Below, one piece after another: positions 1 through 36,886 of a stretch of 37,934 nucleotides of DNA. Below the pieces are notes generated by a model. That model worked only from the letters and a program-made list of their open reading frames with translations. It made no database searches and was not told the origin of the DNA. Both the position numbers and the translations under genes were made by a program. Source of the stretch: Chthoniobacterales bacterium (lineage in GTDB: Bacteria > Verrucomicrobiota > Verrucomicrobiia > Chthoniobacterales > UBA10450); contig JAICXG010000001.1 of assembly GCA_025980625.1 (NCBI GenBank), positions 1 through 37,934 on the forward strand. The letters are read 5' to 3'. The stretch's first letter is position 1, and every line of letters begins with the position of its first letter.

Positions 1-2479
1 CCTTACACTGGCGATCGCGATCGGGGTAAACTCCGCCATCTTCGCCCTCGTTAATGGCGTCGTCCTCCGACCGGTCGTGCCAGTGCGTCCCGCGGAAGTG
101 GTGAATGTTTTCACGGCGCGGCAGGACGCGACTCACGATTATCGGCCATTTTCCTACCGCGAATTCACCGCGTTGCGGGAGAACAATCCAGTCTTCAACG
201 ACGTCGGGGCGATGGGCTTTGCCCTCGCCGGCATCGGGCGCGGCGATAACATGCGGCGCAGCTTCATTTTCCTCAGCTCGGAAAACTTCTTCTCGCTCGT
301 GGGCGCAAAGCCCGCAGTAGGCCGTTTCTACGATGCCGCTGAGTGCAAGCCGGGCGCCAATATTCCCGTCGTGGTGGCGAGCTATCCTTATTGGAAAAAG
401 CTCGGCGGCCGTGCCGATCTCATTGGCAAACCGCTGACCGTGAATGGCCAGACTTACACGCTCATCGGAGTGACACCAGAGGGTTTTTCCGGAACAAACG
501 CGATCCTCGCACCTGATCTTTGGCTGCCGCTCGGCGTCTACTCACAACTTGGGTCAGCCTTTAGCGACACCAGCGGCAAGATGGAGTTGGGCGAGCCGAA
601 GAATTACGCCCTCAATCTAATCGCCCGACTGCGTCCTGGCCTAACGAGTGACTCAGCCAAGCCGCGCCTCAGCGCGCTCGCCCAACGCCTGACCGCGATC
701 CAGCCGCCCGACTCGACCGGCACACGCGAGTTACAACTCCAGGCGCCGTCGCGCTTCAGCATCAGCACGACGCCCTCGGATGACGGCCCGGTCGGACTTA
801 TCGGCACCTTGCTTCTCGCGATGGCGGCGGCGGTTTTGCTTATCGCCTGCCTCAATCTCGCGAACATGCTTCTCGCGTGCGGGGCCAATCGCGCCAAGGA
901 GATCGCGCTTCGCCTCGCGCTCGGGGCGAGCCGCTGGCGCATCGTCCGGCAGCTCTTGTGCGAAGGATTGCTGCTCGCGCTTGCTGGCGGTGCCCTGGGT
1001 TTGTTCATAAGTCTCTGGAGCAATGATCTGCTCCTTGGTTCGTTAGGCGGGCTTTTCGGCTCGATGAATTTTTCCATCGTCGTGCAGTTACGACCGGACA
1101 TAACTGTTCTGGCTGTTACTTTCCTGATCTGTTTGGTCGCGACTTTGCTCTTCAGCCTCGGGCCCGCCCTGAAGGCTGCCCGCGTTGATCTCGTCAATGA
1201 CCTAAAGCAGCAGGTCGGCGAGCCGGCGCATGTCGGACGACTGAATCGCTTCTTTGCTCCGCGCCACCTGCTGGTGATGGCGCAGGTCGCCCTCTCGCTC
1301 ACACTGCTTTTCAGCGGCGGATTGTTTTTCCGCGGAGCGCTCAAAGCGGGAGGGCTGAATCCGGGCTTTGATCGCAAAGGCGCGATTTCGGCGGAGATGG
1401 ATTTCACTCTTCGCCATGAGGACGAGGCTATGGCGCAACGCACCATGTTCGAGGCGGTGCATCGCGTCCGTGCGCTGCCAGGCGTTCGAGGGGTTGCCCT
1501 AACGACGATGCTTCCCTATGGCAACATCACTAACGTGCGACGGATCATGCGGGCCGACGAAGCCGCGGTCGCGAAAACCGATCCAAAAGCGCCTGAGCCC
1601 GGCGCCAGCGGGCTATTCACTGCGATCACGCCCGGCTGGTTCGACGCTATCGGCGTGCATCTCCTCCGCGGCCGCGATTTCACCGATAACGAATGCGAAA
1701 ACAAGGGCACGCCGCGAGTCCTGATCATCGACGAAACGATGGCGAAGAAACTTTTCCCGAATCGTGACGCGCTCGGTCAGCATGTTCGTTACACCCTGCC
1801 GCCGAGCGACGGTTCGCCTAACGATTTCACCATTATTGGCATTGTTAGGGCGCATCGCCACGAGGTGCTCGCCGGTGAGATGCCGAAGCGGATTTTTGCG
1901 CCGCTTGCGCAGGCTTATAGCGGCGGAGTGATTCTCCAGGTGCGACTGGCGCGGGATGAGCGCGCGGCGGTCGCAGCGATGATCCCGACGCTTCGTCAGA
2001 CCTTGCGCGAGGTGGAACCGACCATGCCGATTCTCCAGATCGAGCCGTTCGAAAATATCGTCGAGAAAAATGTCGGCCTCTGGGCGATTCGGTTCGCCGC
2101 GATTCTCTTTGGTATTTTCGGCGGCATCGCACTCCTTCTCGCAGTCGTCGGCGTTTACGGCGTCAAAGCTTACTCTGTGGCGCGACGCACGCGCGAGATC
2201 GGCATCCGGATGGCACTCGGCGCGGACCGCAGCGACGTCTTTGCCCTCATCATGAAACAGGGGGCATTGCAAACGGCCTTTGCGCTTGGGCTCGGTTTGC
2301 TCCTCGCGCTCGGGCTCGGCCGTGTTCTCGCCAAGATGCTTTACCAAGTGAGCCCGAGTGACCCGGTCGCGCTGATCGCGGCAAGTCTTATGCTCGGCGC
2401 GGCGTCCTTGCTGGCTTGTTTTCTCCCGGCGCGTCGTGCGATGCGAGTTACGCCAATGACAGCATTGCGCACGGAATAA
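1..2479 (+). CDS. ABC-type efflux permease, MacB/FtsX family (duplicated ADOP-like architecture), 5'-partial
   Basis: The frame of ORF 77..2479 stays open back to base 2 (LTLAIAIGVNSAIFALVNGVVLRP looks like the first TM helix of MacB/FtsX permeases). There are two FtsX-type modules, each with the cytoplasmic motif (RAKEIALRLALGASR and RTREIGIRMALGADR) and a large extracytoplasmic domain after its first TM helix. Confidence 0.8.
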   Translation, partial: LTLAIAIGVNSAIFALVNGVVLRPVVPVRPAEVVNVFTARQDATHDYRPFSYREFTALRENNPVFNDVGAMGFALAGIGRGDNMRRSFIFLSSENFFSLVGAKPAVGRFYDAAECKPGANIPVVVASYPYWKKLGGRADLIGKPLTVNGQTYTLIGVTPEGFSGTNAILAPDLWLPLGVYSQLGSAFSDTSGKMELGEPKNYALNLIARLRPGLTSDSAKPRLSALAQRLTAIQPPDSTGTRELQLQAPSRFSISTTPSDDGPVGLIGTLLLAMAAAVLLIACLNLANMLLACGANRAKEIALRLALGASRWRIVRQLLCEGLLLALAGGALGLFISLWSNDLLLGSLGGLFGSMNFSIVVQLRPDITVLAVTFLICLVATLLFSLGPALKAARVDLVNDLKQQVGEPAHVGRLNRFFAPRHLLVMAQVALSLTLLFSGGLFFRGALKAGGLNPGFDRKGAISAEMDFTLRHEDEAMAQRTMFEAVHRVRALPGVRGVALTTMLPYGNITNVRRIMRADEAAVAKTDPKAPEPGASGLFTAITPGWFDAIGVHLLRGRDFTDNECENKGTPRVLIIDETMAKKLFPNRDALGQHVRYTLPPSDGSPNDFTIIGIVRAHRHEVLAGEMPKRIFAPLAQAYSGGVILQVRLARDERAAVAAMIPTLRQTLREVEPTMPILQIEPFENIVEKNVGLWAIRFAAILFGIFGGIALLLAVVGVYGVKAYSVARRTREIGIRMALGADRSDVFALIMKQGALQTAFALGLGLLLALGLGRVLAKMLYQVSPSDPVALIAASLMLGAASLLACFLPARRAMRVTPMTALRTE

Positions 2480-2689
2480 ACAAACCGCTCATCCTGGAGC
2501 TGGGACCAGAGATCGCCACGGGGGCCAACCTTTACACCAACGGGACGATCGTTACTCAAGGTGTCCTGACGTGAGTCAGGAGCGGGATCATTTCAGAGGC
2601 ATTGACAGCGATCCCACCCTCAGCGCGGTGCCTTAGTTGCGGTTATCAGGCAGCGAGTTGGCAAGTTTGCGCTGTCTTCAGCCAAACCC

Positions 2690-3295
2690 CTACAGCTTCG
2701 TCCGCCCTGACAGGGCGCGGTAAAGGGTGAGCTCGTCGGCCGACTCCAAGCCGCCCCCGGCGGGCAGACCGTGCGCGATGCGGGTGAGAGTGACCGGGTA
2801 TTTCTTCAGCAGTTCGACCAGATAACTGGTCGTCGCCTCTCCTTCGACGTCGGCGGCGAGCGCGAAAATGATCTCGTTAGGCTTTTCTTTTTCCACCCGC
2901 TCGACGAGCGCTGCGATCCTGAGGTCTTCCGGCGCCACGCGGTCGAGGGGCGAAATGCGCCCGCCTAAAGAATGATAGAGTCCACGGAACGCGCTTGTTT
3001 TTTCTAAAGGAAGGATATCTGTCGGTTGCTCGACGATGCAGAGCTGATCGGCGGCACGCGATTCATCGGCACAAATTTCGCAAAGCTCGGCCGTCGCGAA
3101 AAAGCCGCACCGGCGACAAGGTCGCACTGCGGCGCGCGTCTCGGTGATCGCGCGGGCAATGTTGGCGGGATGATCGCTGCGCGCCTGCACCATCCAAAGC
3201 GCGATCCGCTCGGCAGATCGCGGACCCACGCCCGGCATCTGGCGCAATTGCACGATCAGGTCGCGAAGCGCGGCGGGATATTCGGTGCGCTTCAC
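2690..3295 (-). CDS. recR: Recombination protein RecR
   Basis: RecR hallmarks: helix-hairpin-helix MPGVGPRSAERIALW, C4 zinc finger CRRCGFFATAELCEIC, Toprim segment LCIVEQPTDI. I place the start at GTG 3295, which gives 201 aa (normal RecR length) and a GTGA overlap with the stop of the upstream cyclase gene. The longer ORF to 3484 would overlap that gene heavily. Confidence 0.88.
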   Translation of the reverse strand: MKRTEYPAALRDLIVQLRQMPGVGPRSAERIALWMVQARSDHPANIARAITETRAAVRPCRRCGFFATAELCEICADESRAADQLCIVEQPTDILPLEKTSAFRGLYHSLGGRISPLDRVAPEDLRIAALVERVEKEKPNEIIFALAADVEGEATTSYLVELLKKYPVTLTRIAHGLPAGGGLESADELTLYRALSGRTKL

Positions 3296-4560
3296 CGGAG
3301 TGAAGAGAGCGGTTCGGCGACCGTCTCGGGCTCGCTCGCCATATGCAGGCAAAGCGGCTCGAGCCGGCGCAAATACCATTCCAGAGCCCGGTCCGAGTTG
3401 CCGTTGCGGTCGCCGCGCGCGCGGTTGAATTCGGCAAGAGCTTCGTTCCAGCGCCGCTCGCGGAAATAAACCACGCCGGTCCAAAACTGATCGCGTCGCG
3501 CAATCTCCTCTGCCGTCGCCCGGTCGGACAAGACGAGCAGTTCGTAAATCTCGAAACGCTCGTGCGCTTCGGTATTCCGCAGGAAATCAATTGGTCGCGC
3601 CAGTATTTCCTTACCGGCGAGATTGAAGGTGCGCGGACCAAGGAGAATCTGAGAGCCGTAGACCTGGTTGGCGCGCGCGAGCCGCCGGGCAATCTCAAGC
3701 GGTTCGCCCGCCACGACGACCTCGCCACCTCGTCGATCGTCGCGCACGGTCGCGACGACCGCGCCGGAACTGATCCCGATGCGGAGATCGATTTTGCCTA
3801 ACGAGTCCGGTGCGGCGCTGGCGGCGGCACGAAATTGATCGCAAAAGCCAAACGTCGCCCGCGCCGCTTCGATCGCATGCCGTTCGCTCTTATCCGGGAA
3901 ACCGAAGAGCACGCGAATGCCTTCGCCATCCGCGGCATGAAGATAACCGCCTGTCTGCAGAAAATGCCGAGTTGCAAAATCGATGAAGGCACGGGTGAGC
4001 GCGGCACATTCCGCCGGGGCGAGTTCCTCGATCAGGTCGGCTTCGTTGGCGATTTCGCAGAAGACGAAACTGGATTCTCGCACCAAAGGCTGGGAGAGAT
4101 TAAGCGCTTCGCCTTTCGCCAGACGAGCCTGTCCTGCCGGGCCGAGGCGGGCGCCGAAGAGGCGCAGGGTGGCACGGCGCTGCCGGGCCAATTTCGTCCA
4201 GCCGGTGGCGACTGCCAAAGCAGTGGCGATGACCGCAGCGATCATCGCGGGGAGCGGCATGAAATGAACTTGCGCGTGATCGAGCAACCACCCAGCCCCA
4301 ATCAACTCGGCGAGGAGGAGAAGCACGATGCCGAGGCGGCGCCATAAGGTCGTCTCCAACAGCATCGTTGCGGCAACAGCAAACCCGAGGAGGAGGACGA
4401 AAAGGAGATTGCCGAAGCCGGAGATCTCGTTAGTCGTTAGGCCAAGTGTCTGCGCCAGCCAGCGATTCGGGCGCGCGAGAACTCCGGTGAGCTGGAGCGC
4501 GATCGAGATTCCGGCCGCGATCGCTCCGATCCAGAGTGTCCCGAGGAGCGTGCGCTTCAT
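3292..4560 (-). CDS. Membrane-anchored class III adenylate/guanylate cyclase
   Basis: The N-terminal ~130 aa contains several hydrophobic helices. A nucleotidyl cyclase core follows (FVFCEIANEADL, RVLFGFPDK, IGISSGAVVATV, GEVVVAGEPLEIARRL, QILLGPRTF), then a helical C-terminal tail. The start overlaps the upstream stop (ATGA at 4557-4560). Confidence 0.75.
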   Translation of the reverse strand: MKRTLLGTLWIGAIAAGISIALQLTGVLARPNRWLAQTLGLTTNEISGFGNLLFVLLLGFAVAATMLLETTLWRRLGIVLLLLAELIGAGWLLDHAQVHFMPLPAMIAAVIATALAVATGWTKLARQRRATLRLFGARLGPAGQARLAKGEALNLSQPLVRESSFVFCEIANEADLIEELAPAECAALTRAFIDFATRHFLQTGGYLHAADGEGIRVLFGFPDKSERHAIEAARATFGFCDQFRAAASAAPDSLGKIDLRIGISSGAVVATVRDDRRGGEVVVAGEPLEIARRLARANQVYGSQILLGPRTFNLAGKEILARPIDFLRNTEAHERFEIYELLVLSDRATAEEIARRDQFWTGVVYFRERRWNEALAEFNRARGDRNGNSDRALEWYLRRLEPLCLHMASEPETVAEPLSSLR

Positions 4561-6224: not shown

Positions 6225-6232
6225 TCGTTAGG
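6225..6232 (-). repeat. Intergenic copy of the abundant 8-mer (TCGTTAGG on + strand)
   Basis: Exact match in the divergent promoter region between the clpX-like gene and yajC. Confidence 0.9.
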
Positions 6233-6681: not shown

Positions 6682-6682
6682 A

Positions 6683-12573: not shown

Positions 12574-12691
12574 GTGAAGGTTCCTTGAATTCGTGCTTGG
12601 ATGCGTTTGCCCTCTAATGCAGTTTTCGTGCCCCAGACTGCGGAATTCTGCGCCGCAATTTGCGGCGCTGCGGGACTCCTCGCCGCTTTGC

Positions 12692-18831: not shown

Positions 18832-18832
18832 G

Positions 18833-20020: not shown

Positions 20021-20223
20021 TTCCCCATTTCCGATGCGATCTGTCAATTCGCCGCGTCCTCGCGACAGCGTCGATCCCCCCAGCCGAGCCATGGCAAAGG
20101 GCAGGAGAGCCGCCCAATCAGCGTGAGACACGTTGCTTTGAGCGAAGGGCCGAAATCCTGAGCCAGGGTGGCGGGAGCATTCATCCTTTGCGCTCTTCCC
20201 AGCGCCGCAAGCTGAAGCTTCCG

Positions 20224-20625: not shown

Positions 20626-20686
20626 CGGGTGGCGAGCTTACGGAAAGTTTGTCGGCTGCGCAATCGGCCGCTAAACTGATGCTGCC

Positions 20687-22688: not shown

Positions 22689-22900
22689 GTTGGCGATCAA
22701 AACTCGACATGCTCGTCCTGACGCGCGAAGAGCAGCGCACGATCGCCTTTGTCGTTCTCGCGCTCGTGCTCGGATTAGCGACGAAGCATTACCGGCACGT
22801 GCATGCGAAAGCCGCGACCCCTAACGAACAATCGACCCTCGCCGCAACCGCTTTTCCTGCGCCTTCGCCCTCGCCGCAAAAACTGCGTCGCGCCCCCTAA
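22685..22900 (+). CDS. Small single-pass membrane protein (hypothetical)
   Basis: ATGA overlap with the queC stop. [36 protein letters not shown] contains one TM helix. 71 aa. Weak evidence. Confidence 0.35.
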
Positions 22901-22961: not shown

Positions 22962-22969
22962 TCGTTAGG
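22962..22969 (-). repeat. Intergenic copy of the abundant 8-mer (TCGTTAGG on + strand)
   Basis: Exact match in the convergent spacer 22901-22977. Confidence 0.9.
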
Positions 22970-26732: not shown

Positions 26733-29700
26733 ATGCATCTTAAATCGCTCGAGCTTTTCGGGTTCAAATCGTTCGCCGATAAAACCGTTTTCAACTTTCA
26801 CGAAGGCGTGACCGCAATCGTTGGCCCTAACGGTTGCGGAAAATCCAACGTCCTCGACGCCGTTCGCTGGGTTCTCGGCGAGCAATCGGCCAAAGCCCTG
26901 CGCGGCGGTGAAATGGCCGACGTCATTTTCAACGGCACTGACTCGCGCAAGCCGGTCGGGTTTGCGGAAGTTTCCCTAACCTTCACCGATTGCTCAGCAG
27001 AACTCGGCATCGATTGGCACGAAGTGCGCGTGACCCGGCGAGTTTATCGCGACGGCATTTCGGAATATCTCCTCAACAAAACCGTCTGCCGGCTGAGGGA
27101 CATCCAGGCTTTGTTCGCCGACACCGGCATCGGGCGCGCCGCCTATTCAATGATGGAACAGGGCCGGATCGATCAGATTCTCAGCTCGCGTCCAGAAGAT
27201 CGGCGGGCGGTTTTCGAAGAAGCGGCCGGGATCACGAAATACAAAACGCAAAAGCGCGAGGCGCTGCGCAAACTCGAGGCGACCGAGGCGAACCTGCTTC
27301 GGCTGGGGGACATCATCAAGGAGGTGAAACGCCAGATCGGCTCGCTCCAGCGCCAGGCCGGAAAAGCGCGACGTTATCAGGCTTTGCTTCTTGATCTGCA
27401 GGTGCTCGACAGTCATCATTCGCGCGCTCAGCTCGATTCGCTCGCGGCGGAGCTGGAATGCTCGCGCGCCGCAACCGTGCAACTCGATGAACAACAGCGA
27501 AGCACTGAAGCGGAAATCGAGGAGTACGAAAACCGAGTCGCAGGCGAGCGCGCGCAACTTGATGTAGTCGACGCGCAAATCAACGCGGCTCGCGCCGAAG
27601 TGCAGCGGCTCCAAAATCAGATCGCCTCGTATCGCAATCGGATCGATTTCAACCGGGAGCGTGCCGAGGAATTGACCGGATTGATCGGGCGCTACGAAAC
27701 GGATGTCGCATCGGCCGAAGCAAAACGGGCGCAACAGAAAACGGAAATTCACGACACCGATTTGCTCCTTCTCGAGACGAAACGCCTCCTTGCCGCGAAA
27801 CAGATCGAGCTGGAAGAGTTGAGCGCACGCGCCGCCGAAGTGCGCGAGGCGTGTGAGAATCGCGAACGCGAACTGCAGGCACTCGAGCTCGCGATCTCGA
27901 AATCGGAAAATCGCCTCGCCGATTTCGAAAGCGAGATTGCGAGCACGACCGCACGACGAGCGGCGACCGAACCGCGAGTCGCCGAATTGCGAGCGTCGTT
28001 AGGCGAAGCTGCTGCTGCCCGGCAGACGATTGCCGATCAACTCGCGCAGGTGCGCGCCGCCGCCGAGGAGGAACAGACCGCGCTCCAGGAACTCGGGGCG
28101 CAAACGCCGGCGGCCGAGGAGGAGCTGCATCGCCAGGAAGGGCGATTGCGCGAGGCGGAAAGCGCCTTGATGAGCAACGATCGCGCGATTACCGAAGGAC
28201 AATCGCGGTTGGAAATTCTGCAGCAGCTCAATGCCGAGGGCGAAGGGCTGGCCGAGGGTTCGCAGGCGGTCCTGCGCGGGCTCGATCAGCCAGAGCGCAT
28301 CTTGCCCGCGATCAAGGGCGCGCTCGCTTCCTTGATCGAAGTCGATGAAGACTTCATTCGCGCGATTGAAGCCGCGCTTGGTCGGAATCTGAACGCGATT
28401 GTCCTGCAAGACGGCGGGCTCGCCCCCGAGATCATCGCAATTCTGACCGGCAAACGACTCGGCCAGACCGCGCTGATTGCGCCGGGACTTAGCGCCGCGC
28501 CCACGCCTTCGGTGCGAGGTCTGCCGCCCGGCGCGATCGGCTGGGCGACGGAGAAAGTCCGCGCCGATGTCGAGTTTGACCTGCTCGTTAGGCAATTGTT
28601 AGGCAACGTGGTTCTCGTCAGAGATCTCTCCGAGGCCTTGAAGTTGAAGCGGGAATTTCCGGATCTCACTTTTGCCACCCGCGGCGGTGAAGTTGTTTCC
28701 GCCGAGGGCGTGATCTACGGCGGCCTGATCAATCAGGAAATCGGCTCGCTCTTTGCGCGCAAAACTCAGATCGCGAAGCTCGCCGCCGAACAGGAGAAGC
28801 TTCTCGGCGAGCAAGCAAATCTTCAGGAAAAACGCGACGAAGCGAAACGTCACGTAGGTGCCGCAGCCGAGCATTTGGCCAATATTCGCGAGCAACTTCA
28901 GGCGGCCCGGAGTGAGCACGGCGCTACCACCGCACGGACGAGCGCGCTCGATCGCGAATGGTACGAAGCGAATCGCCGGTTCGAAGCGCTCGATTGGGAG
29001 CGCGCGACGCTCGATCAGCAACTTGCCAGTGCGGCTGAACGATTGGCGCACCTGGAAAATGAAGCCGAGGAGCAGCGAGAATTTCTCGCCGGCGGACGCA
29101 AGCGCCTAACGAATTTGGAATCGGCGGCGGAAACCGAACACCTGCGCGACGCAGAGATCACAGAGCAGGTGGGCGAACTCCGGCTCGCGGTCGCGACGGA
29201 GCGGCAGCGGCACGAAGGCTTGCGCACCCAGCGCGCGCCGATGACTACCCGCGAGGCCGAGCTTTCCGAATTGATCGCAACCCGGCGCAGCGACATCGCG
29301 AATTACCAGGCGCGGCTCGAACAGCAGAGCGTCGAGACCGCCGCAGCCGAGCGCGCGATCGAGGAAAACAACGTCAACCTGACGCGCGCCGAAGCCGCCG
29401 TCGCGGAGATCGCGCAGACGCGCGCGGCGCGCCTCGCCGAGGTCAACGAGCTAGAGGCAGACTTGCGGGTGCGGCGCAAAGCATTGAGCGAGCTGCACGA
29501 CGCGCGCGGGAAGGAAGAAGTGCGGCAGACGCAGATCCAGTTGAAAATGGAAAATCTCGCTGAGCACGTGATGCGGCGCTACCAGATCGACCTGCGCGAG
29601 TTTGCGGTCGATCGTTATGCGTTCATCAAGAGCTACCGCGCGCAGATCAAACAGCGCGGCAAAGCCGAAGCGGAAACAGCGACCGAACAAATCGAGGAAG

Positions 29701-30449
29701 AACAACTCCGTCTGCTGGTCGAAGAGATGACCCGGCAGCTCGATGCGATGGGCCCGGTGAATCTCGACGCCGTGCACGAGTACGACGAACTCGAGGAGCG
29801 CTACAAGTTTCTCGAAACGCAGAATACCGACCTGACGAATTCCCGCCGCGAACTGCTCGATGTCATCGCCCGGATCAACCAGACGACGGAAAAACTTTTC
29901 GCGGAAACTTTCGCGCAGGTCCGGATCAACTTTCGAGAAATGTTCGCCGAGCTTTTCGGCGGCGGTCGAGCCGATCTTGCGTTGCTCGATGAAAACGACG
30001 CGCTCAACTGCGGAATCGACATCATCGCGAAGCCGCCAGGGAAACAATTGCAAAGCGTTTCGCTCCTTTCCGGCGGCGAACGCACGATGACGGCGGTCGC
30101 GCTTCTCTTTGCGATTTACATGGTGCGGCCGAGCCCGTTCTGCGTTCTCGACGAAATGGACGCGCCGCTCGACGAATCGAACATCAACCGCTTCATCAAA
30201 GTGCTCGATCGATTTGTGAACCAAAGCCAGTTCATCATCATCACGCATAACAAGCGCACGATCGCGAAGGCAGACATCCTTTATGGCGTGACGATGGAAG
30301 AACGGGGCATCAGCAAGCTGGTCGGGATGCGCCTAACGAAAGCGAAACCGCAGGATGAAGTCGCGCCCGCACGAGAGAGCACGGCCGCGCAGCAGAAGTC
30401 GCTCGGGTTTGAGGAGGCAGAGTCGGGCAGAATGGCAGTGACTCGTTAG
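26733..30449 (+). CDS. smc: Chromosome segregation protein SMC
   Basis: MHLKSLELFGFKSFADKT, Walker A GPNGCGKSN, long coiled coils flanking a hinge (AIKGALASLIEVDEDFIRAIEAALG), signature LSGGERTMTAVALLFA, and Walker B FCVLDEMDAPLD. Confidence 0.92.
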   Translation: MHLKSLELFGFKSFADKTVFNFHEGVTAIVGPNGCGKSNVLDAVRWVLGEQSAKALRGGEMADVIFNGTDSRKPVGFAEVSLTFTDCSAELGIDWHEVRVTRRVYRDGISEYLLNKTVCRLRDIQALFADTGIGRAAYSMMEQGRIDQILSSRPEDRRAVFEEAAGITKYKTQKREALRKLEATEANLLRLGDIIKEVKRQIGSLQRQAGKARRYQALLLDLQVLDSHHSRAQLDSLAAELECSRAATVQLDEQQRSTEAEIEEYENRVAGERAQLDVVDAQINAARAEVQRLQNQIASYRNRIDFNRERAEELTGLIGRYETDVASAEAKRAQQKTEIHDTDLLLLETKRLLAAKQIELEELSARAAEVREACENRERELQALELAISKSENRLADFESEIASTTARRAATEPRVAELRASLGEAAAARQTIADQLAQVRAAAEEEQTALQELGAQTPAAEEELHRQEGRLREAESALMSNDRAITEGQSRLEILQQLNAEGEGLAEGSQAVLRGLDQPERILPAIKGALASLIEVDEDFIRAIEAALGRNLNAIVLQDGGLAPEIIAILTGKRLGQTALIAPGLSAAPTPSVRGLPPGAIGWATEKVRADVEFDLLVRQLLGNVVLVRDLSEALKLKREFPDLTFATRGGEVVSAEGVIYGGLINQEIGSLFARKTQIAKLAAEQEKLLGEQANLQEKRDEAKRHVGAAAEHLANIREQLQAARSEHGATTARTSALDREWYEANRRFEALDWERATLDQQLASAAERLAHLENEAEEQREFLAGGRKRLTNLESAAETEHLRDAEITEQVGELRLAVATERQRHEGLRTQRAPMTTREAELSELIATRRSDIANYQARLEQQSVETAAAERAIEENNVNLTRAEAAVAEIAQTRAARLAEVNELEADLRVRRKALSELHDARGKEEVRQTQIQLKMENLAEHVMRRYQIDLREFAVDRYAFIKSYRAQIKQRGKAEAETATEQIEEEQLRLLVEEMTRQLDAMGPVNLDAVHEYDELEERYKFLETQNTDLTNSRRELLDVIARINQTTEKLFAETFAQVRINFREMFAELFGGGRADLALLDENDALNCGIDIIAKPPGKQLQSVSLLSGGERTMTAVALLFAIYMVRPSPFCVLDEMDAPLDESNINRFIKVLDRFVNQSQFIIITHNKRTIAKADILYGVTMEERGISKLVGMRLTKAKPQDEVAPARESTAAQQKSLGFEEAESGRMAVTR

Positions 30450-30555
30450 GCCGGCCGCCCTGCTCCTCGTTCATCCAAGCGCTTCACGCAGGACGACAAG
30501 ATAGGCAACGTCCTCGGTTTGACCTATCTTGGCCGCCGGCGCGTTTCCCAATTCC

Positions 30556-31704
30556 ATGCACAAAGTTTTGTCGTTGGCTGCTGGCTGTATTTGTTTGTTT
30601 GCGCTCGCGGCCCGCGCCTACGGCCCCGAGGGACACAAGATCATCGGCGCAATCGCCGATCAACGGCTCGCTCGCACCTTGGCCGGCGCACGCGTTTCGG
30701 AACTGCTCGACGGCTACACTCTCGAGGAGGTCTCGATGATCGCCGACACGATCAAGCAGTGGGACAAGCCGGGCGTCGAAGGCCCAAACGTGCAGCGATA
30801 TTTCTCCTCTCATCCGCTGATTGCGGAGCAGTTGCGCGAGTTCTGGAAAGCCAATCCGCCTACGGATGACCTAAACTCGCCCGTGCCGTCGCATCACTGG
30901 TTCCACTACACCGATGTGCCGCTGGCCGGGAATGCGGATTATGCCGGGGGCAAAACCGGTCGGAGCCCATGGGACATCGTCCACATGATGCGCTACTGCA
31001 TCGAGGTTCTGGCCGGAAATATTCCGGCGAGCAACGAACGCAAAATCACCCAGCCGATCGCGCTCATTCTCCTCGCCCATTATGTCGGCGACATCCATCA
31101 ACCCCTCCATGTCGGCGCCGAGTACTTCGACCGCAAAGGCAAGCCGGTGAATCCGGACAAGATCAGCGCGGCGTTACCGGACGAGGGCGGCAATTCCCTT
31201 CGACTCAAGCTCGCCGGCGGCTTCCCGCGCAAACGCGATCCGAAATTTCACGGCTACTGGGACGCCGACGCAGTCCTGGCAAACCTCCCGCTGCTTCCCG
31301 CGACCATGCCGAAGGAACTCCGGCAACAAAAGACGGATCTGGCGCTAAAGTCCCTAACGAGTCGACTCGCGAAAGTCGAACCGACGCATTGGCAGATGTC
31401 GCCGACGCTGCCGCTCGAGGATTATCCGGAAGGATGGGCAAATGAAATCCTGCCGATCGCGCGCGAAGCGTATGGCCGGCTGCATTATCAAAACATCGCG
31501 CCCAGGTTGGACAACGGGAAACTGGTCGCCGAAGGCGAACTCGTGGAGAAACCGGGCGAGCACGAGATGCCGTATGCAAAATGGGCGGCCGACACTGTCC
31601 TTGACGAAATGCACAAGGCCGGCTGGAGACTTGCCGATTTGCTCGTGAAGCTGCTCACGCCTAACGAGAAGGCGCGGTCCCAAATCGCGGGCGCCGCCCC
31701 TTGA
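30556..31704 (+). CDS. Secreted S1/P1-family nuclease
   Basis: Signal peptide, then the conserved S1/P1 metal-ligand blocks: YGPEGHKIIG, HWFHYTDVP, LLAHYVGDIHQPLHVG, DEGGN, FHGYWD. Confidence 0.78.
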   Translation: MHKVLSLAAGCICLFALAARAYGPEGHKIIGAIADQRLARTLAGARVSELLDGYTLEEVSMIADTIKQWDKPGVEGPNVQRYFSSHPLIAEQLREFWKANPPTDDLNSPVPSHHWFHYTDVPLAGNADYAGGKTGRSPWDIVHMMRYCIEVLAGNIPASNERKITQPIALILLAHYVGDIHQPLHVGAEYFDRKGKPVNPDKISAALPDEGGNSLRLKLAGGFPRKRDPKFHGYWDADAVLANLPLLPATMPKELRQQKTDLALKSLTSRLAKVEPTHWQMSPTLPLEDYPEGWANEILPIAREAYGRLHYQNIAPRLDNGKLVAEGELVEKPGEHEMPYAKWAADTVLDEMHKAGWRLADLLVKLLTPNEKARSQIAGAAP

Positions 31705-31745: not shown

Positions 31746-32114
31746 ATGAAGTGGCAGACGAAAATTCTGGCCGCGCTGATCGTCGCAGTCGGCCTGCTAC
31801 CGCTTGCCGGTTTTCCCCAATCGCCGCCGCCAGCACCGAACCCTGTCTACGGCGCTTATCCCGACAAGTACAAGGAGATCATCACCAGCTGGCTCAACTC
31901 GGCGCTCCTCGATCCGCAGAGCCTGATTATTAAATGGCGGAGCGAGCCGCGACCGGGGGAGCTAAAGGTGCAAGGCAAAACGATCTCCGGGTTTTTGGTC
32001 GATTTCTCGGTCAACGCCCGAAACATGTTTGGCGTTTACACCGGCGCGCAGAAGCACACCGCGCTTATTCGTGACGGCCAGGTCGTCACGGCCACCGGGT
32101 TTGTCGCTCGTTAG
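31746..32114 (+). CDS. Hypothetical secreted/lipoprotein-like small protein
   Basis: MKWQTKILAALIVAVGLLPLAG is a signal sequence. 122 aa. Its last 29 nt overlap the 3' end of the convergent TamB-like gene. Confidence 0.5.
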   Translation: MKWQTKILAALIVAVGLLPLAGFPQSPPPAPNPVYGAYPDKYKEIITSWLNSALLDPQSLIIKWRSEPRPGELKVQGKTISGFLVDFSVNARNMFGVYTGAQKHTALIRDGQVVTATGFVAR

Positions 32115-34920
32115 GCAAGCCTAACGAGATCGGCGGCGGCGGGACGGTGCGCAGGAGCAACGGTTCGGTCCGCATCGATCGCGGCCGGAGGAAGAATGTT
32201 CGCTGCTCGGTGAGGAAAGCTTGAGTCTCCGGTGCCCTGGAATAAATCGTTAGGCTGCCCGTCCCCGAGCCGAGCCTTCCGCGCACCACCGCTTTTTCGA
32301 GCCGCGGTTTTTCACCTCCGTTCCCCTCGCCGATAAGGCGGATGCTGGAAAGATTGGCGCCGCTCGGCGGAAGATCGACCAGCGCAAGTTCGCCCTCCGC
32401 CGGCTCGATCGAAAGCTGGAAGTCGGGTGGTGCGGTCGTTAGGCGGGCAGACAAACCCAGCTCTCTTCCTCCGATTTCGCCTCGGATACTGATGTCGGCG
32501 CGATCGGTTGCGAAACGGAGTTGTGCGCTAAGATCATTCAGCTCCGGCCAGGGCGGAGGCGGCTTCAGCGCCGCGCCGAGAATTTGCGCTTCTCCGGAGA
32601 TGCGGGGAGCGCCTAACGAGCCGGAGAAGGCAATCGTGCCGCTGAGCAAACCGTGCGGCGCCCAGGACTGCATTTCGTTAGGCAAATCCTCCAGGAAAAG
32701 GGCCGAACAACCGGCCGTGAGGGAAAATGGCGCCGTCGGATCGAGCACGCTACCGACCTCGAGGTGCTCCTTATCCAGCCGCAACGGGATGGAGGCATTC
32801 GCCCAGACCGGCGACGACTTACCAAACAACGCGGTCGCTTCGCCATCGGCACGTCCGTCGATATAGTGACCGTCGAAGACGAGCATATCCTTCGATGACG
32901 CCCCCCCGAAGTTCTGCAGCCGGCCGCCGCCTGTGATCTGGAGTGCGCCTAACGAACCGAAAGCGGCGACTTTGCCCTCGAGGACGCCATCCAGCGGAAG
33001 CTTTTCCCCGAGAGCATCACCCAGTTTTCCCAGATCGAGATGATCGATGGCGAGGTCGAGGTCGAACTTCTGTTTTGCATCCAACGCCGCAAAGACCCGG
33101 CGCGTGTTCCGCCAGCGATCAATTCCGAAGGGAAAAAAGATTGTGCCGGTGACGCGCGGCGCGCCATCGAGCGTGAGCCGGAGCGATTGGAACTCGACGA
33201 AGTTTGCGCCGAGCATGAGATAGCCGCCTAACCACAAGCGGTCGTTCCCGACCTGGAACGTGCGAAAGAAAACATCGCGCGGCGAATAGCTCCCTTCGAG
33301 CGTGAAATCGAGCGGCATACGCAACAAAGGAATCGGCAATCGCAATCCATGAGCATAGAACTGGAAGGTGCCAGAGTTGGCTGCGACTGTGCCGTCGCCG
33401 CGCCAATCGAAGGTTGCACCGCCGCCGAGGTTCGAGTTCTGCCAATCGGCTGGAAAAAGCGGAGCGTAGCTGGCGAGGTCATTGATCGCACCGGTGAGGC
33501 GGGCGGTGAAACGATGCGGCGCGCGCAGATCGATCTCGCCCGCTGCACGGAGAAAATCCTGCGCGTGCCGCGCTTCCAGGCTCTCGAGCGTGATCTCGCC
33601 GCCGCGCAAGTGCATGGCGGCCCCTAACGAGTCGAGGGTGACACCGCGAAAGCTCACACCGTTGCCACGGAGGTTGAGCGCTCCGTGCGCTTCCGAGGCA
33701 AGCGCATCGATGTCTCCTTCCGCGGTGACCGCGCCGGTAAAGTCGCCGGTGGTCGCGCCGAAGAGCTTGGCGAAACTGTTTAGGTCGGGAATGGTCGCAC
33801 TCAATTGGCAGCGGAACGGCAACTCCATCCAACTGCGTCCCTTTTTCGGCCAGAGCAATTGGCCATTGATCGTGAGCTGGTTCTCGCGCTGGCGGATGTA
33901 AAGCTGGTCAACCGCAAGACGGCGATCGTAATAGGTCGCGCCCAACATGACGCTGTCGGCGCGCCGCTCGCGCCAGGCGAAATCTGTCAGCTCCATCCAG
34001 ACCGACGCGGTGCCATCGAGAAACTGGCCGGGATTTCCGCGCAAGGTGAACTTGCTCGCGCGGATCCGGCCGGTGATCGGCTCGAGGAAGCCGAACGTGC
34101 TCGCGATCTGCGCGAGGGAAATGTTGGAAGCGGATCCGGCGACATCGACCGACGATTTCTTCCCGGCTTTCGCCTCCAGGCTGGTGCGGAGTGTGCCGCC
34201 ATAGGCATCGAGCTGGAGATCAGTTCGCACCCGTCTTCGCGCCAGGCGCGAGAGATCGAGGGTGAGCGCTTCCAGATCGAGGCCGCGGACGAGCGGGATT
34301 CCGGCAATCGTTAGGCGATTGCCTTCCCACGAGGTCGCGCCGCGGAGATCGACGAAAGTTTTCCGCAGAAGCGGCGATCTCACCGCGACCTCGCGCGCGA
34401 GGAATTTTCCCGCCTCGATCGCGCTCGCGCTCAGTGTCAATCCCCGCAAACTGGCCGCGACATTGGCAGTCGTTAGGTCGAGGTCGGCCTGAGCGATACG
34501 GAAATTTTCCGGAACGAGCTGGGCGAGAAGGGCCCAATCCAGCTCTTTTGTCGCAGTTCTCGGGATCGGGAAGCGGAGTTTCACATTGAGCTGGTCGACC
34601 TTGATGGAGCGCAGGAAGGCGCTGCGATGGGAGAGAATTTGGCCGTGAAAATTGAGCTCCACGACGAGTTTGTGAACTTCGATCGAGACCTCCCGCGCCG
34701 CGCCGGGGGGCGAGAAAAGGCGCAGCTTCTGGATCGTGACCGGTTGGAGCAACGGCGCGTCGATTGTCCCGATCTCCGCCTGCAGCCCTTCGCGCGCCGC
34801 CGCCCAGCGCAGCCAGAGGCGAATGCCCGCGGGAATTAGAACAGGCGCCAACACCGCGTCGAGCGCGGCGAGGAGAAGCCCGACGAGCAAGAGAAGGAGA
34901 AGACGTTTTCGAAACGACAT
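32086..34920 (-). CDS. TamB/AsmA-like large envelope protein
   Basis: 944 aa with an N-terminal membrane anchor (RLLLLLLVGLLLAALDAVLAPVL), followed by a long beta-rich repetitive sequence typical of AsmA/TamB-type proteins. Assignment is by architecture only. Confidence 0.5.
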   Translation of the reverse strand: MSFRKRLLLLLLVGLLLAALDAVLAPVLIPAGIRLWLRWAAAREGLQAEIGTIDAPLLQPVTIQKLRLFSPPGAAREVSIEVHKLVVELNFHGQILSHRSAFLRSIKVDQLNVKLRFPIPRTATKELDWALLAQLVPENFRIAQADLDLTTANVAASLRGLTLSASAIEAGKFLAREVAVRSPLLRKTFVDLRGATSWEGNRLTIAGIPLVRGLDLEALTLDLSRLARRRVRTDLQLDAYGGTLRTSLEAKAGKKSSVDVAGSASNISLAQIASTFGFLEPITGRIRASKFTLRGNPGQFLDGTASVWMELTDFAWRERRADSVMLGATYYDRRLAVDQLYIRQRENQLTINGQLLWPKKGRSWMELPFRCQLSATIPDLNSFAKLFGATTGDFTGAVTAEGDIDALASEAHGALNLRGNGVSFRGVTLDSLGAAMHLRGGEITLESLEARHAQDFLRAAGEIDLRAPHRFTARLTGAINDLASYAPLFPADWQNSNLGGGATFDWRGDGTVAANSGTFQFYAHGLRLPIPLLRMPLDFTLEGSYSPRDVFFRTFQVGNDRLWLGGYLMLGANFVEFQSLRLTLDGAPRVTGTIFFPFGIDRWRNTRRVFAALDAKQKFDLDLAIDHLDLGKLGDALGEKLPLDGVLEGKVAAFGSLGALQITGGGRLQNFGGASSKDMLVFDGHYIDGRADGEATALFGKSSPVWANASIPLRLDKEHLEVGSVLDPTAPFSLTAGCSALFLEDLPNEMQSWAPHGLLSGTIAFSGSLGAPRISGEAQILGAALKPPPPWPELNDLSAQLRFATDRADISIRGEIGGRELGLSARLTTAPPDFQLSIEPAEGELALVDLPPSGANLSSIRLIGEGNGGEKPRLEKAVVRGRLGSGTGSLTIYSRAPETQAFLTEQRTFFLRPRSMRTEPLLLRTVPPPPISLGLPNERQTRWP
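32107..32128. repeat. Inverted pair of the abundant 8-mer (CTCGTTAGG-caag-CCTAACGAG)
   Basis: 9-bp perfect stem (32107-32115 with 32120-32128) and a 4-nt loop, located in the 29-nt overlap of two convergent genes. Confidence 0.9.
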
Positions 34921-34939: not shown

Positions 34940-34957
34940 CCTAACGACGCCTAACCA
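34940..34957 (+). repeat. Exact 8-mer plus one-mismatch copy in tandem (CCTAACGAcgCCTAACCA)
   Basis: Located in the 30-nt spacer between the DUF4230-like stop and the TamB-like start. The second copy overlaps the TAG stop at 34951-34953. Confidence 0.9.
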
Positions 34958-35646
34958 CGCGGCGAAGGCGCTGCAAAGATGGCACGAACCGGCTGTTGCG
35001 GGTGAAATTTTTCGCGCAGCTCGCGCGTGAAACCCTGCTCCGCTTCCGCCGGCAAGCCGCCTGATTTTTCCCGGGCCAACTGCGGCAGGAGAGCGAGTTC
35101 CTTCTCGATGTCATCAGGAGAAATGCGATTCCAAAATCCGTTCTCGAGGGCGAGCACTTCGACCTCCTCTTGCTCGACCGAGAGGATTTGGGCATGCGGG
35201 AGCTCGATCATGATTTCGTCCGGCTGGATCTCGACGAGAAATTTTTTCCGAAGATCGAAACCGGCTTTAACGAGATAAGTGCCGTGGAGTTTGACCCGCT
35301 TCGTGCTTCCGGCCCAGGTGTGGAGCATCTCGTGGTCGACTTCGACCCGGCGGGCGAGGACCGACAACTCCGCGATCGCGCTTCTTTGCTCGAGGTAGAC
35401 ATGGTTGTTGATCGTGACCCGCGGCTGGAGGTGCACCAGCCTAACGAATGCGTCGCGCGCCTCGCGCCCGAGCTGCTCGAGTCGCGCCGTGCTCTGCGCG
35501 GCGGTGCGCGCGGGCCAGGTCTCGATCCGGTAGAAGACAAAGCCAGCGAGAAGCGCGAGAACGACAATGACGAGAACGATGGCGAGCGGCCATCCTATTC
35601 GCCGCGACCCTGGCTGCTTTGCGCGGCGCTTCCTCTCCAACTCCAT
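34951..35646 (-). CDS. DUF4230-like membrane-anchored protein
   Basis: Basic N-terminus plus one TM helix (WPLAIVLVIVVLALLAGFVFY), then a pattern including YLVKAGFDL that I associate with the DUF4230 family. Start chosen at ATG 35646. Confidence 0.5.
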   Translation of the reverse strand: MELERKRRAKQPGSRRIGWPLAIVLVIVVLALLAGFVFYRIETWPARTAAQSTARLEQLGREARDAFVRLVHLQPRVTINNHVYLEQRSAIAELSVLARRVEVDHEMLHTWAGSTKRVKLHGTYLVKAGFDLRKKFLVEIQPDEIMIELPHAQILSVEQEEVEVLALENGFWNRISPDDIEKELALLPQLAREKSGGLPAEAEQGFTRELREKFHPQQPVRAIFAAPSPRG

Positions 35647-35857
35647 CACCCCAAAAAAGTACCGCCCCCCACACCCGAAGGGCATGAAGGGCGGCTGTTC
35701 CCCCCAGAACAATCGTTCAAATTCGACTCCCGAATACGGGAGCTAACGCTGGCATGCAAGAAATAATTTTGCGTCGTCCTGGAAATCCAGTTTTGCGGCG
35801 GAACGCAAGCACGTTGACGAAACCCGCATCGTACCGCCTCCTTCAGGCAATCACGCC

Positions 35858-36886
35858 GTGAATCTTCGCGATCTGCAATTGCGCAACTTCCGCTGCTTCG
35901 CTTCCTACGCGGCGGAATTTGCGCCGGGATTCAATTTCATTGTCGGCCCGAACGGGCGCGGCAAGACGACGCTGCTCGAAGCGGCTTGCGTGCTGCTGCG
36001 TTTGCAATCGCAACGTTCCACCAATCTCGCTCCGGCTCTGCGCTTGGGTGAGCGATCGTTTGTGCTGGTCGGCCACGCCTCCGATCACCGCTTGCAGTTT
36101 TACTACAGCGCGCTGCGGCGGAAGGTGGCATTCGACGGGGTTGAGCAACGCGATCTGGCGGAATACCTGAGTCTTGCCCGCGTCGTTTCTTTTGCCAATC
36201 ACGATCTTGATCTCGTGCGCGGGCCCGCGGAGCTGCGCCGGCGCTATCTTGATTTCATCGGCGCGCAGATCGACGTGCGTTATCGCCCCGCGCTGCGCGC
36301 CTATGAACGCGCGCTTCGTTCCCGCAACGCGCTCCTCAAGTCGGCCCATCCCCGGCCGCGCGAGTTGGCCGCTTACACCGAACCGCTCGTCCGCTCGGGC
36401 AATCTGCTGCGCGAGCTGCGTAGCGCGATCGTTAGGCGACTGGCCCCGCGCGCGGCGGAAAGCCAGCGCCAGATCGGCGGCGGCCAGGAAATGCTCGGGC
36501 TCGAGTACGCGCCGGGCAGCGAAGAGGATTTCGCCGCGCAACTGGCGCGGGCCCGAGCCGAGGAAACGCGGCTTCGCCTAACGACGGTCGGGCCGCATCG
36601 CGATGATCTGCGCCTCTTGGTGGAAGGGCGACCGGCGGCACCCTTTGCCTCGGAGGGACAGCAGCGCACTACCGCGCTCGCTCTCAAGCTGGCTCAGGCG
36701 CAAATCTTTGCTGAAAATTTCGGGGCGCCGCCGCTCCTCCTGATCGACGATATTTTCGGCGAGCTGGATGCGGCCCGGCGCAATGCGCTCCTCGGCTGTT
36801 TGCCTAACGAGGCGCAAAAGCTGGTCACGGCGACTTCGCTCGCGTGGCGCGAAGGAAATCTGGAAGGACCGATTCTGCGGTTGTAG
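35858..36886 (+). CDS. recF: DNA replication and repair protein RecF
   Basis: GTG start. LQLRNFRCF, Walker A GPNGRGKTTLLEA, signature-like SEGQQRTTALALKLA, and Walker B LLLIDDIFGELD. Confidence 0.85.
   Translation: MNLRDLQLRNFRCFASYAAEFAPGFNFIVGPNGRGKTTLLEAACVLLRLQSQRSTNLAPALRLGERSFVLVGHASDHRLQFYYSALRRKVAFDGVEQRDLAEYLSLARVVSFANHDLDLVRGPAELRRRYLDFIGAQIDVRYRPALRAYERALRSRNALLKSAHPRPRELAAYTEPLVRSGNLLRELRSAIVRRLAPRAAESQRQIGGGQEMLGLEYAPGSEEDFAAQLARARAEETRLRLTTVGPHRDDLRLLVEGRPAAPFASEGQQRTTALALKLAQAQIFAENFGAPPLLLIDDIFGELDAARRNALLGCLPNEAQKLVTATSLAWREGNLEGPILRL

Follow-up and report, generated by a model that had tools for sequence, protein, structure and literature searches.

A 37,934-nucleotide stretch of DNA from a Chthoniobacterales bacterium (the window; positions 1 to 37,934 of contig JAICXG010000001.1, assembly GCA_025980625.1) carries 54 exact copies of the 8-mer CCTAACGA (word A), 28 on the plus strand and 26 on the minus strand by pattern search, for a density of 1.42/kb. 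The enrichment of this word is a DNA-level property that is independent of protein sequence and codon usage, and the word is a clade-wide and genome-wide feature under long-term nucleotide-level maintenance, imposed partly at the expense of the protein. The explanation we favor, to which we assign a probability of roughly one in two, is that the word in its 9-mer form GCCTAACGA (extended form ttcGCCTAACGA) serves as a clade-specific tag that marks double-stranded DNA as "self", in the manner of the DNA uptake sequence (DUS) and the uptake signal sequence (USS); the reader of the tag and its link to uptake are the parts that we infer. Judged from its sequence characteristics, the word would be part of a real and apparently undescribed uptake-sequence-like system in a new phylum.

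Enrichment and maintenance of the word

A k-mer census ranked CCTAACGA, which is non-palindromic (reverse complement TCGTTAGG), as the commonest 8-mer of the window, above all of the GC-rich low-complexity words. The window has a composition of 59.8% G+C and 40.2% A+T, from which 0.99 copies are expected, and dinucleotide-preserving shuffles gave 0.51 copies per window (maximum 3); the enrichment is 55- to 100-fold. The original prediction, made by a model from the letters alone, had listed the 54 copies with their coordinates and strands, every one of which was exact on re-search, and its estimate of base composition was close to the values recomputed here.

The word is preceded on its 5' side by G in 42 copies, by C in 11 and by A in one, as had been predicted, and the 9-mer GCCTAACGA occurs 42 times. 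When all copies in the window are aligned, position -1 is G in 78% of them, T, T and C are preferred at positions -4, -3 and -2, respectively, and the 3' side has no conserved base. The same profile was seen in 193 copies from 11 related species, and on metagenome contigs of the clade G occupies position -1 in ~98% of the copies. The unit is a 9-mer core with a weak three-base 5' extension, ttcGCCTAACGA, and has 9-12 informative positions. One-mismatch variants of the word do not exceed chance in the window (15 observed versus ~26 expected), and in relatives they show a modest excess only, which consists chiefly of transition variants.

Genes in the window were called from the length of open reading frames (ORFs), the pattern of G+C content at the three codon positions (GC1/GC2/GC3) and Pfam matches. 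By these calls, 47 copies are fully coding, two lie across a stop codon and five are intergenic; the prediction had counted 50 coding and four intergenic copies, and the difference is due to gene calling only. The word is read as TCG-TTA-GGN (S-L-G) in 15 cases, as CTA-ACG (L-T) in 16, as GTT-AGG (V-R) in seven and as CCT-AAC-GAN (P-N-E/D) in nine, or 10 if the long QueC ORF is counted. The true start of QueC is further downstream within this ORF and the upstream part is QueF, and the predicted frame tallies were reproduced once QueF had been added to the gene calls. In the form CGT-TAG, the word supplies the stop codon of GrpE, of SMC and of a 137-aa ORF (hyp137). Thus, all four stop-free frames are used in both orientations, and four different peptides are encoded.

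To separate the word from its coding context, synonymous codons were shuffled within each gene, such that the proteins and the per-gene codon usage were kept. This null, which the original prediction had regarded as decisive for the enrichment, gave a mean of 8.35 copies (sd 1.09, max 12) compared with the 54 observed, and the enrichment stands. The ~8 copies left after shuffling are about as many as lie between genes, at gene edges and in gene overlaps, where shuffling has no effect, and intergenic DNA is ~2.5-fold richer in the word than coding DNA. The use of rare codons is imposed by the word, which accounts for 15 of the 46 TTA and 15 of the 45 CTA codons of the window, each of which makes up ~3% of leucine codons. 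A function of these rare codons as translational pause signals was rejected since the word occurs in four frames, on both strands and between genes, and since the other bases of the word are just as fixed as those of the rare codon.

Plus- and minus-strand copies are intermingled throughout the window, and the lack of strand skew noted in the prediction extends to 17 independent contigs, in which the orientation of the word fits a fair coin (heterogeneity chi-square 13.8, 17 degrees of freedom, p = 0.68). The pooled majority-orientation fraction is 0.60, where 0.61 is expected without bias and 0.70-0.81 with a Chi-like skew of 75% at the scale of these contigs. As the word has no polarity, its interpretation as Chi, as an FtsK-orienting polar sequence (KOPS), as a primase site or as a transcription signal is excluded at this scale. 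A primase/Okazaki priming site and an ops-like transcription pause were rejected for the absence of any bias in strand or direction of transcription, the copies in genes being sense in 25 cases and antisense in 21.

The spacing of the copies in the window and 11 relatives is near-exponential (coefficient of variation, CV, 1.01), with three gaps shorter than 50 bp where 13.7 are expected. This deficit of close copies fits diminishing returns rather than cooperative binding. Pairs within 60 bp number four in 227 kb, one of them in the window; the inverted pairs at gene ends to which the prediction had drawn attention do exist, but they are rare.

To follow individual sites, word copies were mapped onto protein alignments of 14 orthologous genes. 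The word stands at the same codon and in the same phase in 12/12 and 10/12 species at two sites in QueC, in 11/11 species in the M20 peptidase, in 10/12 in NlpC/P60, and in 7/8 and 6/8 at two sites in SMC. Among the 43 mapped sites, 14 are private to one species, 11 are occupied in two species, five in three, two in four, four in five, two in six, one in seven, two in ten, one in eleven and one in twelve. At the deep sites, TCG-TTA-GGC or CCT-AAC-GA is invariant in the A-rich clade while the adjoining codons vary freely; word-less outgroups encode the same residues by CTC, CTG, CCG or CCA, or have different residues altogether, with differences from outgroup to word clade of E to S, K-I to S-L and F-I to S-L. 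Compared between the window and a relative, the word 8-mer is unchanged in 48.6% of cases versus 12.0% for other 8-mers in the same genes; at positions with conserved amino acids, these values rise to 84.8% and 24.7%. Whether copies arise through synonymous changes, a check proposed with the original prediction, could be judged from the 23 coding copies that are alignable to word-less lineages: six are purely synonymous, and the other 17 come with at least one amino-acid difference and so change the protein. Residue identity to the word-less lineages is ~51% at word codons compared with 65% elsewhere, and the copies sit in frame and without indels in conserved housekeeping genes.

One further locus, L220, lacks hyper-abundance of the word (four copies in 21 kb) and retains CCTAACGA precisely at four sites that are among the most widely shared, in its QueC, M20, SMC and NlpC/P60 orthologues. 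Such sites are remnants of early accumulation or else positions under special constraint.

Distribution of the word and a second word in a sister lineage

Relatives of the window were found by one scan of genome collections seeded with QueC (best match 78% identical), which places the window in the order Chthoniobacterales ("Spartobacteria") of the phylum Verrucomicrobiota. CCTAACGA is the most over-represented 8-mer in 11 loci of different species (L001-L010 and L059; 0.65-1.66/kb), all of them syntenic with the window. It is rare in three more distant Chthoniobacterales (L011-L013) and absent from nearly all loci of other phyla in the scan, with one chance copy in L022. An unlinked sample was obtained by searching metagenome contigs for two copies of the 9-mer in inverted orientation at close spacing. 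This yielded 24 contigs, none shorter than 3 kb and together 196 kb long, that have no sequence in common with the window; the word is the top 8-mer of this pool, at 0.89/kb with the seed pairs excluded. Confinement of the word to the window, which the prediction had named as speaking against the enrichment, is at variance with these 24 contigs and with the 11 species, members of related genera. The window's own species is represented by contigs from several sequencing runs and the organism is known from metagenomes only; strains of the species diverge by 0.2-0.5%, which is too little to see selection at word columns.

Two further loci were noted. GrpE, CobA-HemD and SMC are each split into several short fragments in L314 (3526-5809 and 15389-19115), owing either to pseudogenisation or to indel errors in long-read assembly. 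In L224 (2529-5265), the block of hem genes upstream of DUF6572 is replaced by other genes, which include those annotated as an IS1595-family transposase and as an N6/N4 methyltransferase with an MvaI/BcnI-type restriction endonuclease.

Two groups of unrelated sequences share the 9-mer. A family of ~48-nt perfect palindromes, (G)ATGATGGG-TCGTTAGGC-(12-nt loop ACACC..GTGT)-GCCTAACGA-CCCATCAT(C), occurs on contigs L106, L119, L120, L126, L127, L133, L144, L146, L163, L175, L181, L192, L195 and similar ones, in varied intergenic contexts of GC-rich genomes (GC 0.63-0.74). These palindromes resemble repetitive extragenic palindromic (REP) elements, have no Rfam match and are unrelated to the clade word, the common 9-mer being a coincidence. 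L232 and L248 (IMG/VR, GC 0.47-0.50), which are unrelated to the clade, contain tandem repeats of ~51 bp with GCCTAACGA twice per unit, and were rejected as word carriers because they are false positives of a direct-pair scan.

A second word was found in a sister lineage of the clade. L033, a contig of identical gene order, is poor in CCTAACGA but carries 13 copies of GATCGACA in 5.7 kb, and relatives in which to follow this second word (word B) were fetched via one L033 protein. Word B has the consensus AAGATCGACA(A/T), is non-palindromic, is found in either orientation (23:17) and is enriched between genes. AAGATCGACA is present at 1-2/kb in L033, L218 and L315, with 29 copies in 20 kb of L218 (~1100-fold over composition) and 22 copies in L315; the word-B loci are L033:1-5682, L218:1-19918, L219 and L315:1-20912. 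L218 also contains 11 copies of CCTAACGA (0.55/kb), and codon shuffling of L218 leaves 5.3 of the 29 copies of word B and 0.35 of the 11 copies of word A. The two words are not physically associated in L218, where the spacing of word B is more regular than random (CV 0.77, minimum gap 39 bp). L013 was rejected as a second word-B lineage because its AGATCGA matches have heterogeneous flanks.

In a quick neighbor-joining tree built from ten proteins that the loci have in common, all 12 A-rich taxa group together as one clade, whose sister pair, L011 and L012, is A-poor. The B-rich taxa cluster in the other main branch, in which word A ranges from 0 to 0.55/kb. Since the word A copies of L218 are mostly at positions other than those of the A-rich clade, an independent gain is indicated. 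An A-W-C-G-A element is common to the two words (AACGA in GCCTAACGA, ATCGA in AAGATCGACA), which may be a coincidence or a hint of related reader proteins.

Possible functions of the word

To our knowledge, sequence-specific DNA uptake is established only in two proteobacterial families, with the cyanobacterial HIP1 as a recent candidate. The mechanism that we propose for the accumulation of the word is that a component of a Chthoniobacterales DNA-uptake/transformation pathway binds it in either orientation, and that word-bearing fragments from relatives are preferentially taken up or recombined. Biased uptake followed by homologous replacement would constitute a molecular drive, which could spread new copies and repair decayed ones wherever the protein tolerates the word. 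The unrelated AAGATCGACA of the sister lineage might then reflect a second or changed receptor specificity. A self tag with a link to uptake is favored because the word is asymmetric, present at ~1/kb, orientation-blind, frame-tolerant, imposed on proteins and maintained throughout the clade, and because the sister lineage has a second word. The original prediction had likewise leaned to a DUS/USS type of element. Its testable sequence-level expectations of enrichment, distribution, orientation, installation and lineage variation were borne out, while depletion from atypical DNA proved weak and inverted pairs rare.

The Neisseriaceae DUS is a 10-12-mer, (AT-)GCCGTCTGAA, with several dialects and is bound by the minor pilin ComP. 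Like the DUS, the word is short and non-palindromic, occurs at ~1/kb in both orientations, combines a strong core with a weaker 5' extension, lies inside genes with one frame limited by a stop codon, and is highly conserved within its clade; its variants are congruent with phylogeny and two of them are able to coexist in one genome. Frye et al. (2013) reported that DUS dialects follow phylogeny, that two dialects can coexist in one genome and that DUS placement is limited by a stop codon in one frame (PMC3630211). Unlike the DUS, to which it is unrelated in sequence, the word belongs to a different phylum and is overwhelmingly coding (47 of the 54 copies fully in genes and two across a stop codon).

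The Pasteurellaceae USS has a 9-mer core, AAGTGCGGT (Hin type) or ACAAGCGGT (Apl type). In studies by Smith (1995), Redfield (2006), Findlay & Redfield (2009) and Maughan (2010), this nine-base core is said to occur about once per kb, mostly within genes and in several frames, and reportedly it occupies tolerant protein positions, alters peptides, falls into clade-specific types and accumulates in a manner explicable by molecular drive. The word resembles the USS so described in that it is enriched beyond codon shuffling, imposed on peptides and kept at orthologous codons. It differs in that the USS has AT-rich flanking segments whereas the 3' side of the word is not conserved, and in the small halo of one-mismatch copies around it.

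The only other word of comparable abundance is HIP1 (GCGATCGC) of cyanobacteria, an octamer that is 15- to 300-fold over-represented and often present more than once per gene. HIP1 is palindromic with embedded methyltransferase sites (GATC, CGATCG), whereas the Verrucomicrobiota word is asymmetric with no known methylation motif. HIP1 also has a periodicity on a scale of tens of kb, which calls for more sequence than the 38 kb of the window. The two are alike in being conserved at orthologous positions beyond codon and amino-acid constraint, as was described for HIP1 (PMC5861425). Long unexplained, HIP1 now has experimental and comparative links to natural transformation.

Several observations weigh against a role of the word in uptake. 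Literature searches found no natural transformation in Verrucomicrobiota, whose relevant members are uncultured, and a survey paper on ComEC makes no statement on the phylum. No prepilin or PilB/PilT-type (T2SSE) ATPase signature was found in 0.66 Mb of DNA from the clade and sister lineage, a small and scattered sample in which screens for secretin and ComEA motifs were also negative and which makes these negatives weak evidence. The sole transformation gene in this sample is a full-length dprA on clade contig L180 (1449-2582, minus strand; PF02481, E = 1e-73), with three copies of the word inside the gene, and DprA is widespread in non-transformable bacteria. Inverted terminator-like pairs are common in neisserial DUS genomes and rare here. 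Words A and B are unrelated and have no obvious common core, whereas all DUS dialects share CTG.

The remaining adverse points concern mobile DNA. A word-free, species-specific segment lies between Apt and DUF6572 (18539-20223); it is absent from this position in all relatives and present in the same-species contigs L081-L083. Its gene (18833-20083, minus strand) encodes a secreted protein of ~415 aa with an internal duplication of two repeats, has a GC3 of 0.56 versus ~0.71 in other genes and has no Pfam match. The copy-free stretch around it (17936-20723) has zero copies where ~4 are expected, as the prediction had noticed, but the depletion is suggestive only and not significant (uncorrected P ~0.02), and the pool of lineage-specific ORFs, at 2.7 kb, gives a comparison with core genes no power. 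In addition, the only clear clade-like match in the viral scan, L087 (IMGVR_UViG_3300036819_000104), a 12.1-kb viral contig (1-12120), carries 10 copies of the word, or 0.83/kb (0.66/kb without the seed pair), compared with 0.98/kb in host core genes. L087 is a head-morphogenesis module with a gpA-type large terminase, a lambda-family portal, an S49 prohead protease and a major capsid protein. Its word density is unforeseen by uptake-driven accumulation unless the element is a long-resident prophage. No relatives of L087 were found in IMG/VR. Further viral scans gave one weak additional A-bearing contig, L227, and no B-rich phage, so that the phage evidence rests on one contig.

On L180, one of the copies within dprA forms a close inverted pair with a fourth copy that abuts the start of the gene. 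The copies in dprA recall the reported bias of the DUS to genome-maintenance genes, and RecR, SMC and the RecF-like gene of the window carry copies as well.

A tentative alternative, conceivable but on balance unlikely, is that the words are genome-wide self tags that are read inside the cell by a novel sequence-specific system, for example one of recombination, repair or defence, and are not uptake signals. Such systems would be modular, and words A and B, belonging to different modules, could coexist in one genome as they do in L218; phages that infect these hosts would mimic the tag so as to be taken for self.

It is also unlikely, in our view, that the word is tied to an intracellular enzyme, as was classically proposed for HIP1, with biased repair or gene conversion making and restoring copies in resident DNA. 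The enzyme might be an orphan or asymmetric-site methyltransferase coupled to mismatch correction of the very-short-patch (VSP) type, or a recombination-stimulating factor, and words A and B would be the marks of two separately acquired systems. The dominance of the exact word over its one-mismatch variants, the near-host density in the phage module and the modular gain suggested by two unrelated words in L218, with word A mostly at other sites than in the A-rich clade, are all consistent with this mechanism, and site conservation beyond codon and amino-acid constraint is a hallmark of HIP1, too. However, the word is non-palindromic and contains no recognizable methylation motif, no specific transition variant is visibly depleted, and no methyltransferase or Vsr gene is among the genes called in the window. 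In E. coli, the VSP bias of Vsr/Dcm shifts the frequencies of 4-5-mers modestly, far from the 55- to 100-fold seen for a 9-mer. Moreover, the reinterpretation of HIP1 as transformation-linked means that this explanation partly merges with the self tag linked to uptake.

It appears doubtful that the copies make up a dense binding-site array of an abundant chromosomal protein, each site being under direct selection. The protein could be a nucleoid-associated or chromosome-organizing factor, or one that discriminates self from foreign DNA, as in a defence system or a non-polar Chi-like signal, which phages would gain by mimicking. The conservation of individual sites across genera for long periods, the retention of the word in L220 at the most widely shared sites, the presence of the word in a phage and its orientation-independent recognition, as expected for binding to duplex DNA, are in keeping with an array of this kind. 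Nevertheless, the spacing is random with close copies avoided rather than clustered, many sites turn over (the private ones being a third of those mapped), and a core architectural role would hardly allow a sister lineage to switch to another, unrelated word. We know of no nucleoid or segregation protein that uses thousands of exact 9-bp sites mostly inside genes, and every characterized Chi sequence known to us is polar.

A Chi, KOPS or other polar, architecture-imparting sequence that guides RecBCD/AddAB or FtsK along a replichore is very improbable: the word is a short, asymmetric, over-represented 8-mer in the length class of E. coli Chi and KOPS, but it is far denser and far more strongly enriched than the known Chi or KOPS sequences, and the even, interleaved strands of the window, together with the unbiased binomial fit and a majority fraction outside the range for a 75% skew in the 17 contigs, effectively refute this interpretation at contig scale. 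An artefact of protein motifs or codon usage, a miniature inverted-repeat transposable element (MITE) or REP element, chance, an assembly artefact and an engineered watermark, the last of which had been raised in the original prediction, have nothing in their favor beyond raw abundance and are refuted by the codon shuffle, the four different peptides, flanks that are unconserved beyond four bases on the 5' side, the in-frame and indel-free placement of the copies in conserved housekeeping genes and the occurrence of the word in independent assemblies from NCBI, JGI, ENA and Logan. REP and MITE elements, which the prediction had already set aside, are at least 20 nt long, usually palindromic and extragenic, and have conserved flanks, unlike a word with so few informative positions and a mostly genic placement.

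If the word is indeed a self tag linked to uptake, it would be the first uptake-sequence-like system in Verrucomicrobiota, unusual in having two unrelated words with mapped distributions, and gene exchange that is selective for species would extend much further than has been assumed. Full-text searches that combined uptake sequence or competence with Verrucomicrobia, Chthoniobacter, Spartobacteria or Udaeobacter gave no description of such an element in the group, in line with the prediction that none had been described for this kind of genome, and the matches listed in a literature search with the literal word were primers and constructs. Were the tag read inside the cell instead, it would represent a new class of chromosome-wide marking in a very abundant group of soil bacteria. 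That Chthoniobacterales are common in soils is suggested by the soil origin of most contigs retrieved and by the literature on Spartobacteria (PMC3663571). The mapped distributions of the two words allow phyletic profiling for whatever protein or proteins read them, an approach that earlier led to ComP and to the correlation of HIP1 with the T4SS. The word is also a near-diagnostic marker for binning contigs of the clade and a candidate additive for making these recalcitrant bacteria transformable. At hundreds of sites and over long evolutionary time, DNA-level selection overrides codon choice and amino-acid sequence.

Genes and word copies of the window

The window consists of ordinary chromosomal housekeeping genes on both strands, which include MacB/FtsX, RecR, a ClpB-like AAA ATPase, YajC-SecDF, an FGE-sulfatase-domain protein, Hsp70, GrpE, CobA-HemD, HemC, HemA, CcsA, Apt, QueF-QueC, NlpC/P60, an M20 peptidase, an amino-acid permease, SMC, an S1/P1 nuclease, a RecF-like ATPase and AlgH. 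No tRNA genes or Rfam families were found in the window. In the following, the base 5' of the word is G unless another base is given.

MacB/FtsX reads the word as GGC-CTA-ACG-AGT (G-L-T-S; sense) at 640-647 (+), as TCG-TTA-GGC (S-L-G; antisense) at 1040-1047 (-), as GCC-CTA-ACG-ACG (A-L-T-T) at 1498-1505 (+; 5' C) and as CCT-AAC-GAT (P-N-D) at 1817-1824 (+), and RecR has CCT-AAC-GAG (P-N-E) at 2874-2881 (-). A cyclase-like gene contains TCG-TTA-GGC (S-L-G) at 3797-3804 (+) and GGC-CTA-ACG-ACT (G-L-T-T) at 4434-4441 (-). An intergenic copy separates the ClpB-like gene from YajC at 6225-6232 (-; 5' C), and the only copy in the interval of 6.2-12.7 kb is CCT-AAC-GAG (P-N-E) in the FGE-sulfatase gene at 10042-10049 (-). 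In GrpE, the copy at 12691-12698 (+) gives the CGT-TAG stop and that at 13218-13225 (+; 5' C) is read as TCG-TTA-GGG (S-L-G).

The three sites of CobA-HemD, GGC-CTA-ACG-ATC at 13437-13444 (-), TCG-TTA-GGG at 14153-14160 (+; 5' C) and GTC-GTT-AGG (V-V-R) at 14617-14624 (+), are each shared by 5/6 species. HemC follows with GGC-CTA-ACG-AGT at 15469-15476 (-) and ATC-GTT-AGG (I-V-R) at 15602-15609 (+), and CcsA with TCG-TTA-GGC at 17030-17037 (+), where outgroups have A-F-G; the copy at 17928-17935 (-) is intergenic between CcsA and Apt. In the ORF hyp286, CTC-GTT-AGG (L-V-R) is found at 20724-20731 (-; 5' C) and TCC-CTA-ACG-AGC at 21046-21053 (+; 5' C), the latter at the same site in 5/12 species. 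QueF carries CTC-GTT-AGG (L-V-R) at 21890-21897 (-; 5' C) and AGC-CTA-ACG-ATT at 21957-21964 (+).

Both QueC copies are TCG-TTA-GGC: the one at 22158-22165 (-) stands at the codon shared by all 12 A-clade species, for which outgroups have CTC/CTG, and the one at 22542-22549 (-), shared by 10/12, faces E-L-G in outgroups. Intergenic copies between QueC and NlpC/P60 are located at 22820-22827 (+; 5' C) and 22962-22969 (-). NlpC/P60 contains CCT-AAC-GAG at 23528-23535 (-) and, at its 10/12 site, TCG-TTA-GGC at 23759-23766 (+), whereas in the M20 peptidase the 11/11 site is CCT-AAC-GAG at 23953-23960 (-; outgroups CCG/CCA), with TCG-TTA-GGC at 24733-24740 (+; outgroups A-L-Q). The amino-acid permease has TCG-TTA-GGC at 25679-25686 (-) and GCC-CTA-ACG-ATC at 25774-25781 (+; 5' C). 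The shared SMC sites are TCG-TTA-GGC at 27996-28003 (-; 7/8 species) and CTC-GTT-AGG at 28585-28592 (-; 6/8 species); SMC also has CGC-CTA-ACG-AAT at 29105-29112 (+) and CGC-CTA-ACG-AAA at 30332-30339 (+), and its CGT-TAG stop is given by the copy at 30443-30450 (-).

The S1/P1 nuclease reads TCC-CTA-ACG-AGT at 31353-31360 (+; 5' C) and CCT-AAC-GAG at 31660-31667 (+). Beyond the ORF hyp944, an intergenic copy at 34940-34947 (+) precedes DUF4230, which contains TTC-GTT-AGG (F-V-R) at 35440-35447 (+), and the RecF-like gene has ATC-GTT-AGG (I-V-R) at 36429-36436 (-), CGC-CTA-ACG-ACG at 36577-36584 (+) and CCT-AAC-GAG at 36803-36810 (+).

The top word density of the window, 10 copies or 3.5/kb, is found in hyp944 (32086-34920, minus strand), a 944-aa ORF without a Pfam family. 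Its copies are CCT-AAC-GAG at 32108-32115 (-), which also provides the CGT-TAG stop of hyp137, TCG-TTA-GGC at 32120-32127 (+), AGC-CTA-ACG-ATT at 32247-32254 (-), CGC-CTA-ACG-ACC at 32436-32443 (-), TCG-TTA-GGC at 32612-32619 (+), CCT-AAC-GAA at 32675-32682 (-), TCG-TTA-GGC at 32948-32955 (+), TCG-TTA-GGG at 33623-33630 (+; 5' C), CGC-CTA-ACG-ATT at 34308-34315 (-) and GAC-CTA-ACG-ACT at 34470-34477 (-), which has the sole 5' A of the window. The copies at 32108 (-) and 32120 (+) form a perfect 10-bp hairpin, C-TCGTTAGGC-AA-GCCTAACGA-G (32107-32128), at which the last codons of hyp944 overlap the convergent hyp137; the hairpin lies within the 29-nt overlap of the two genes and is conserved in L001.

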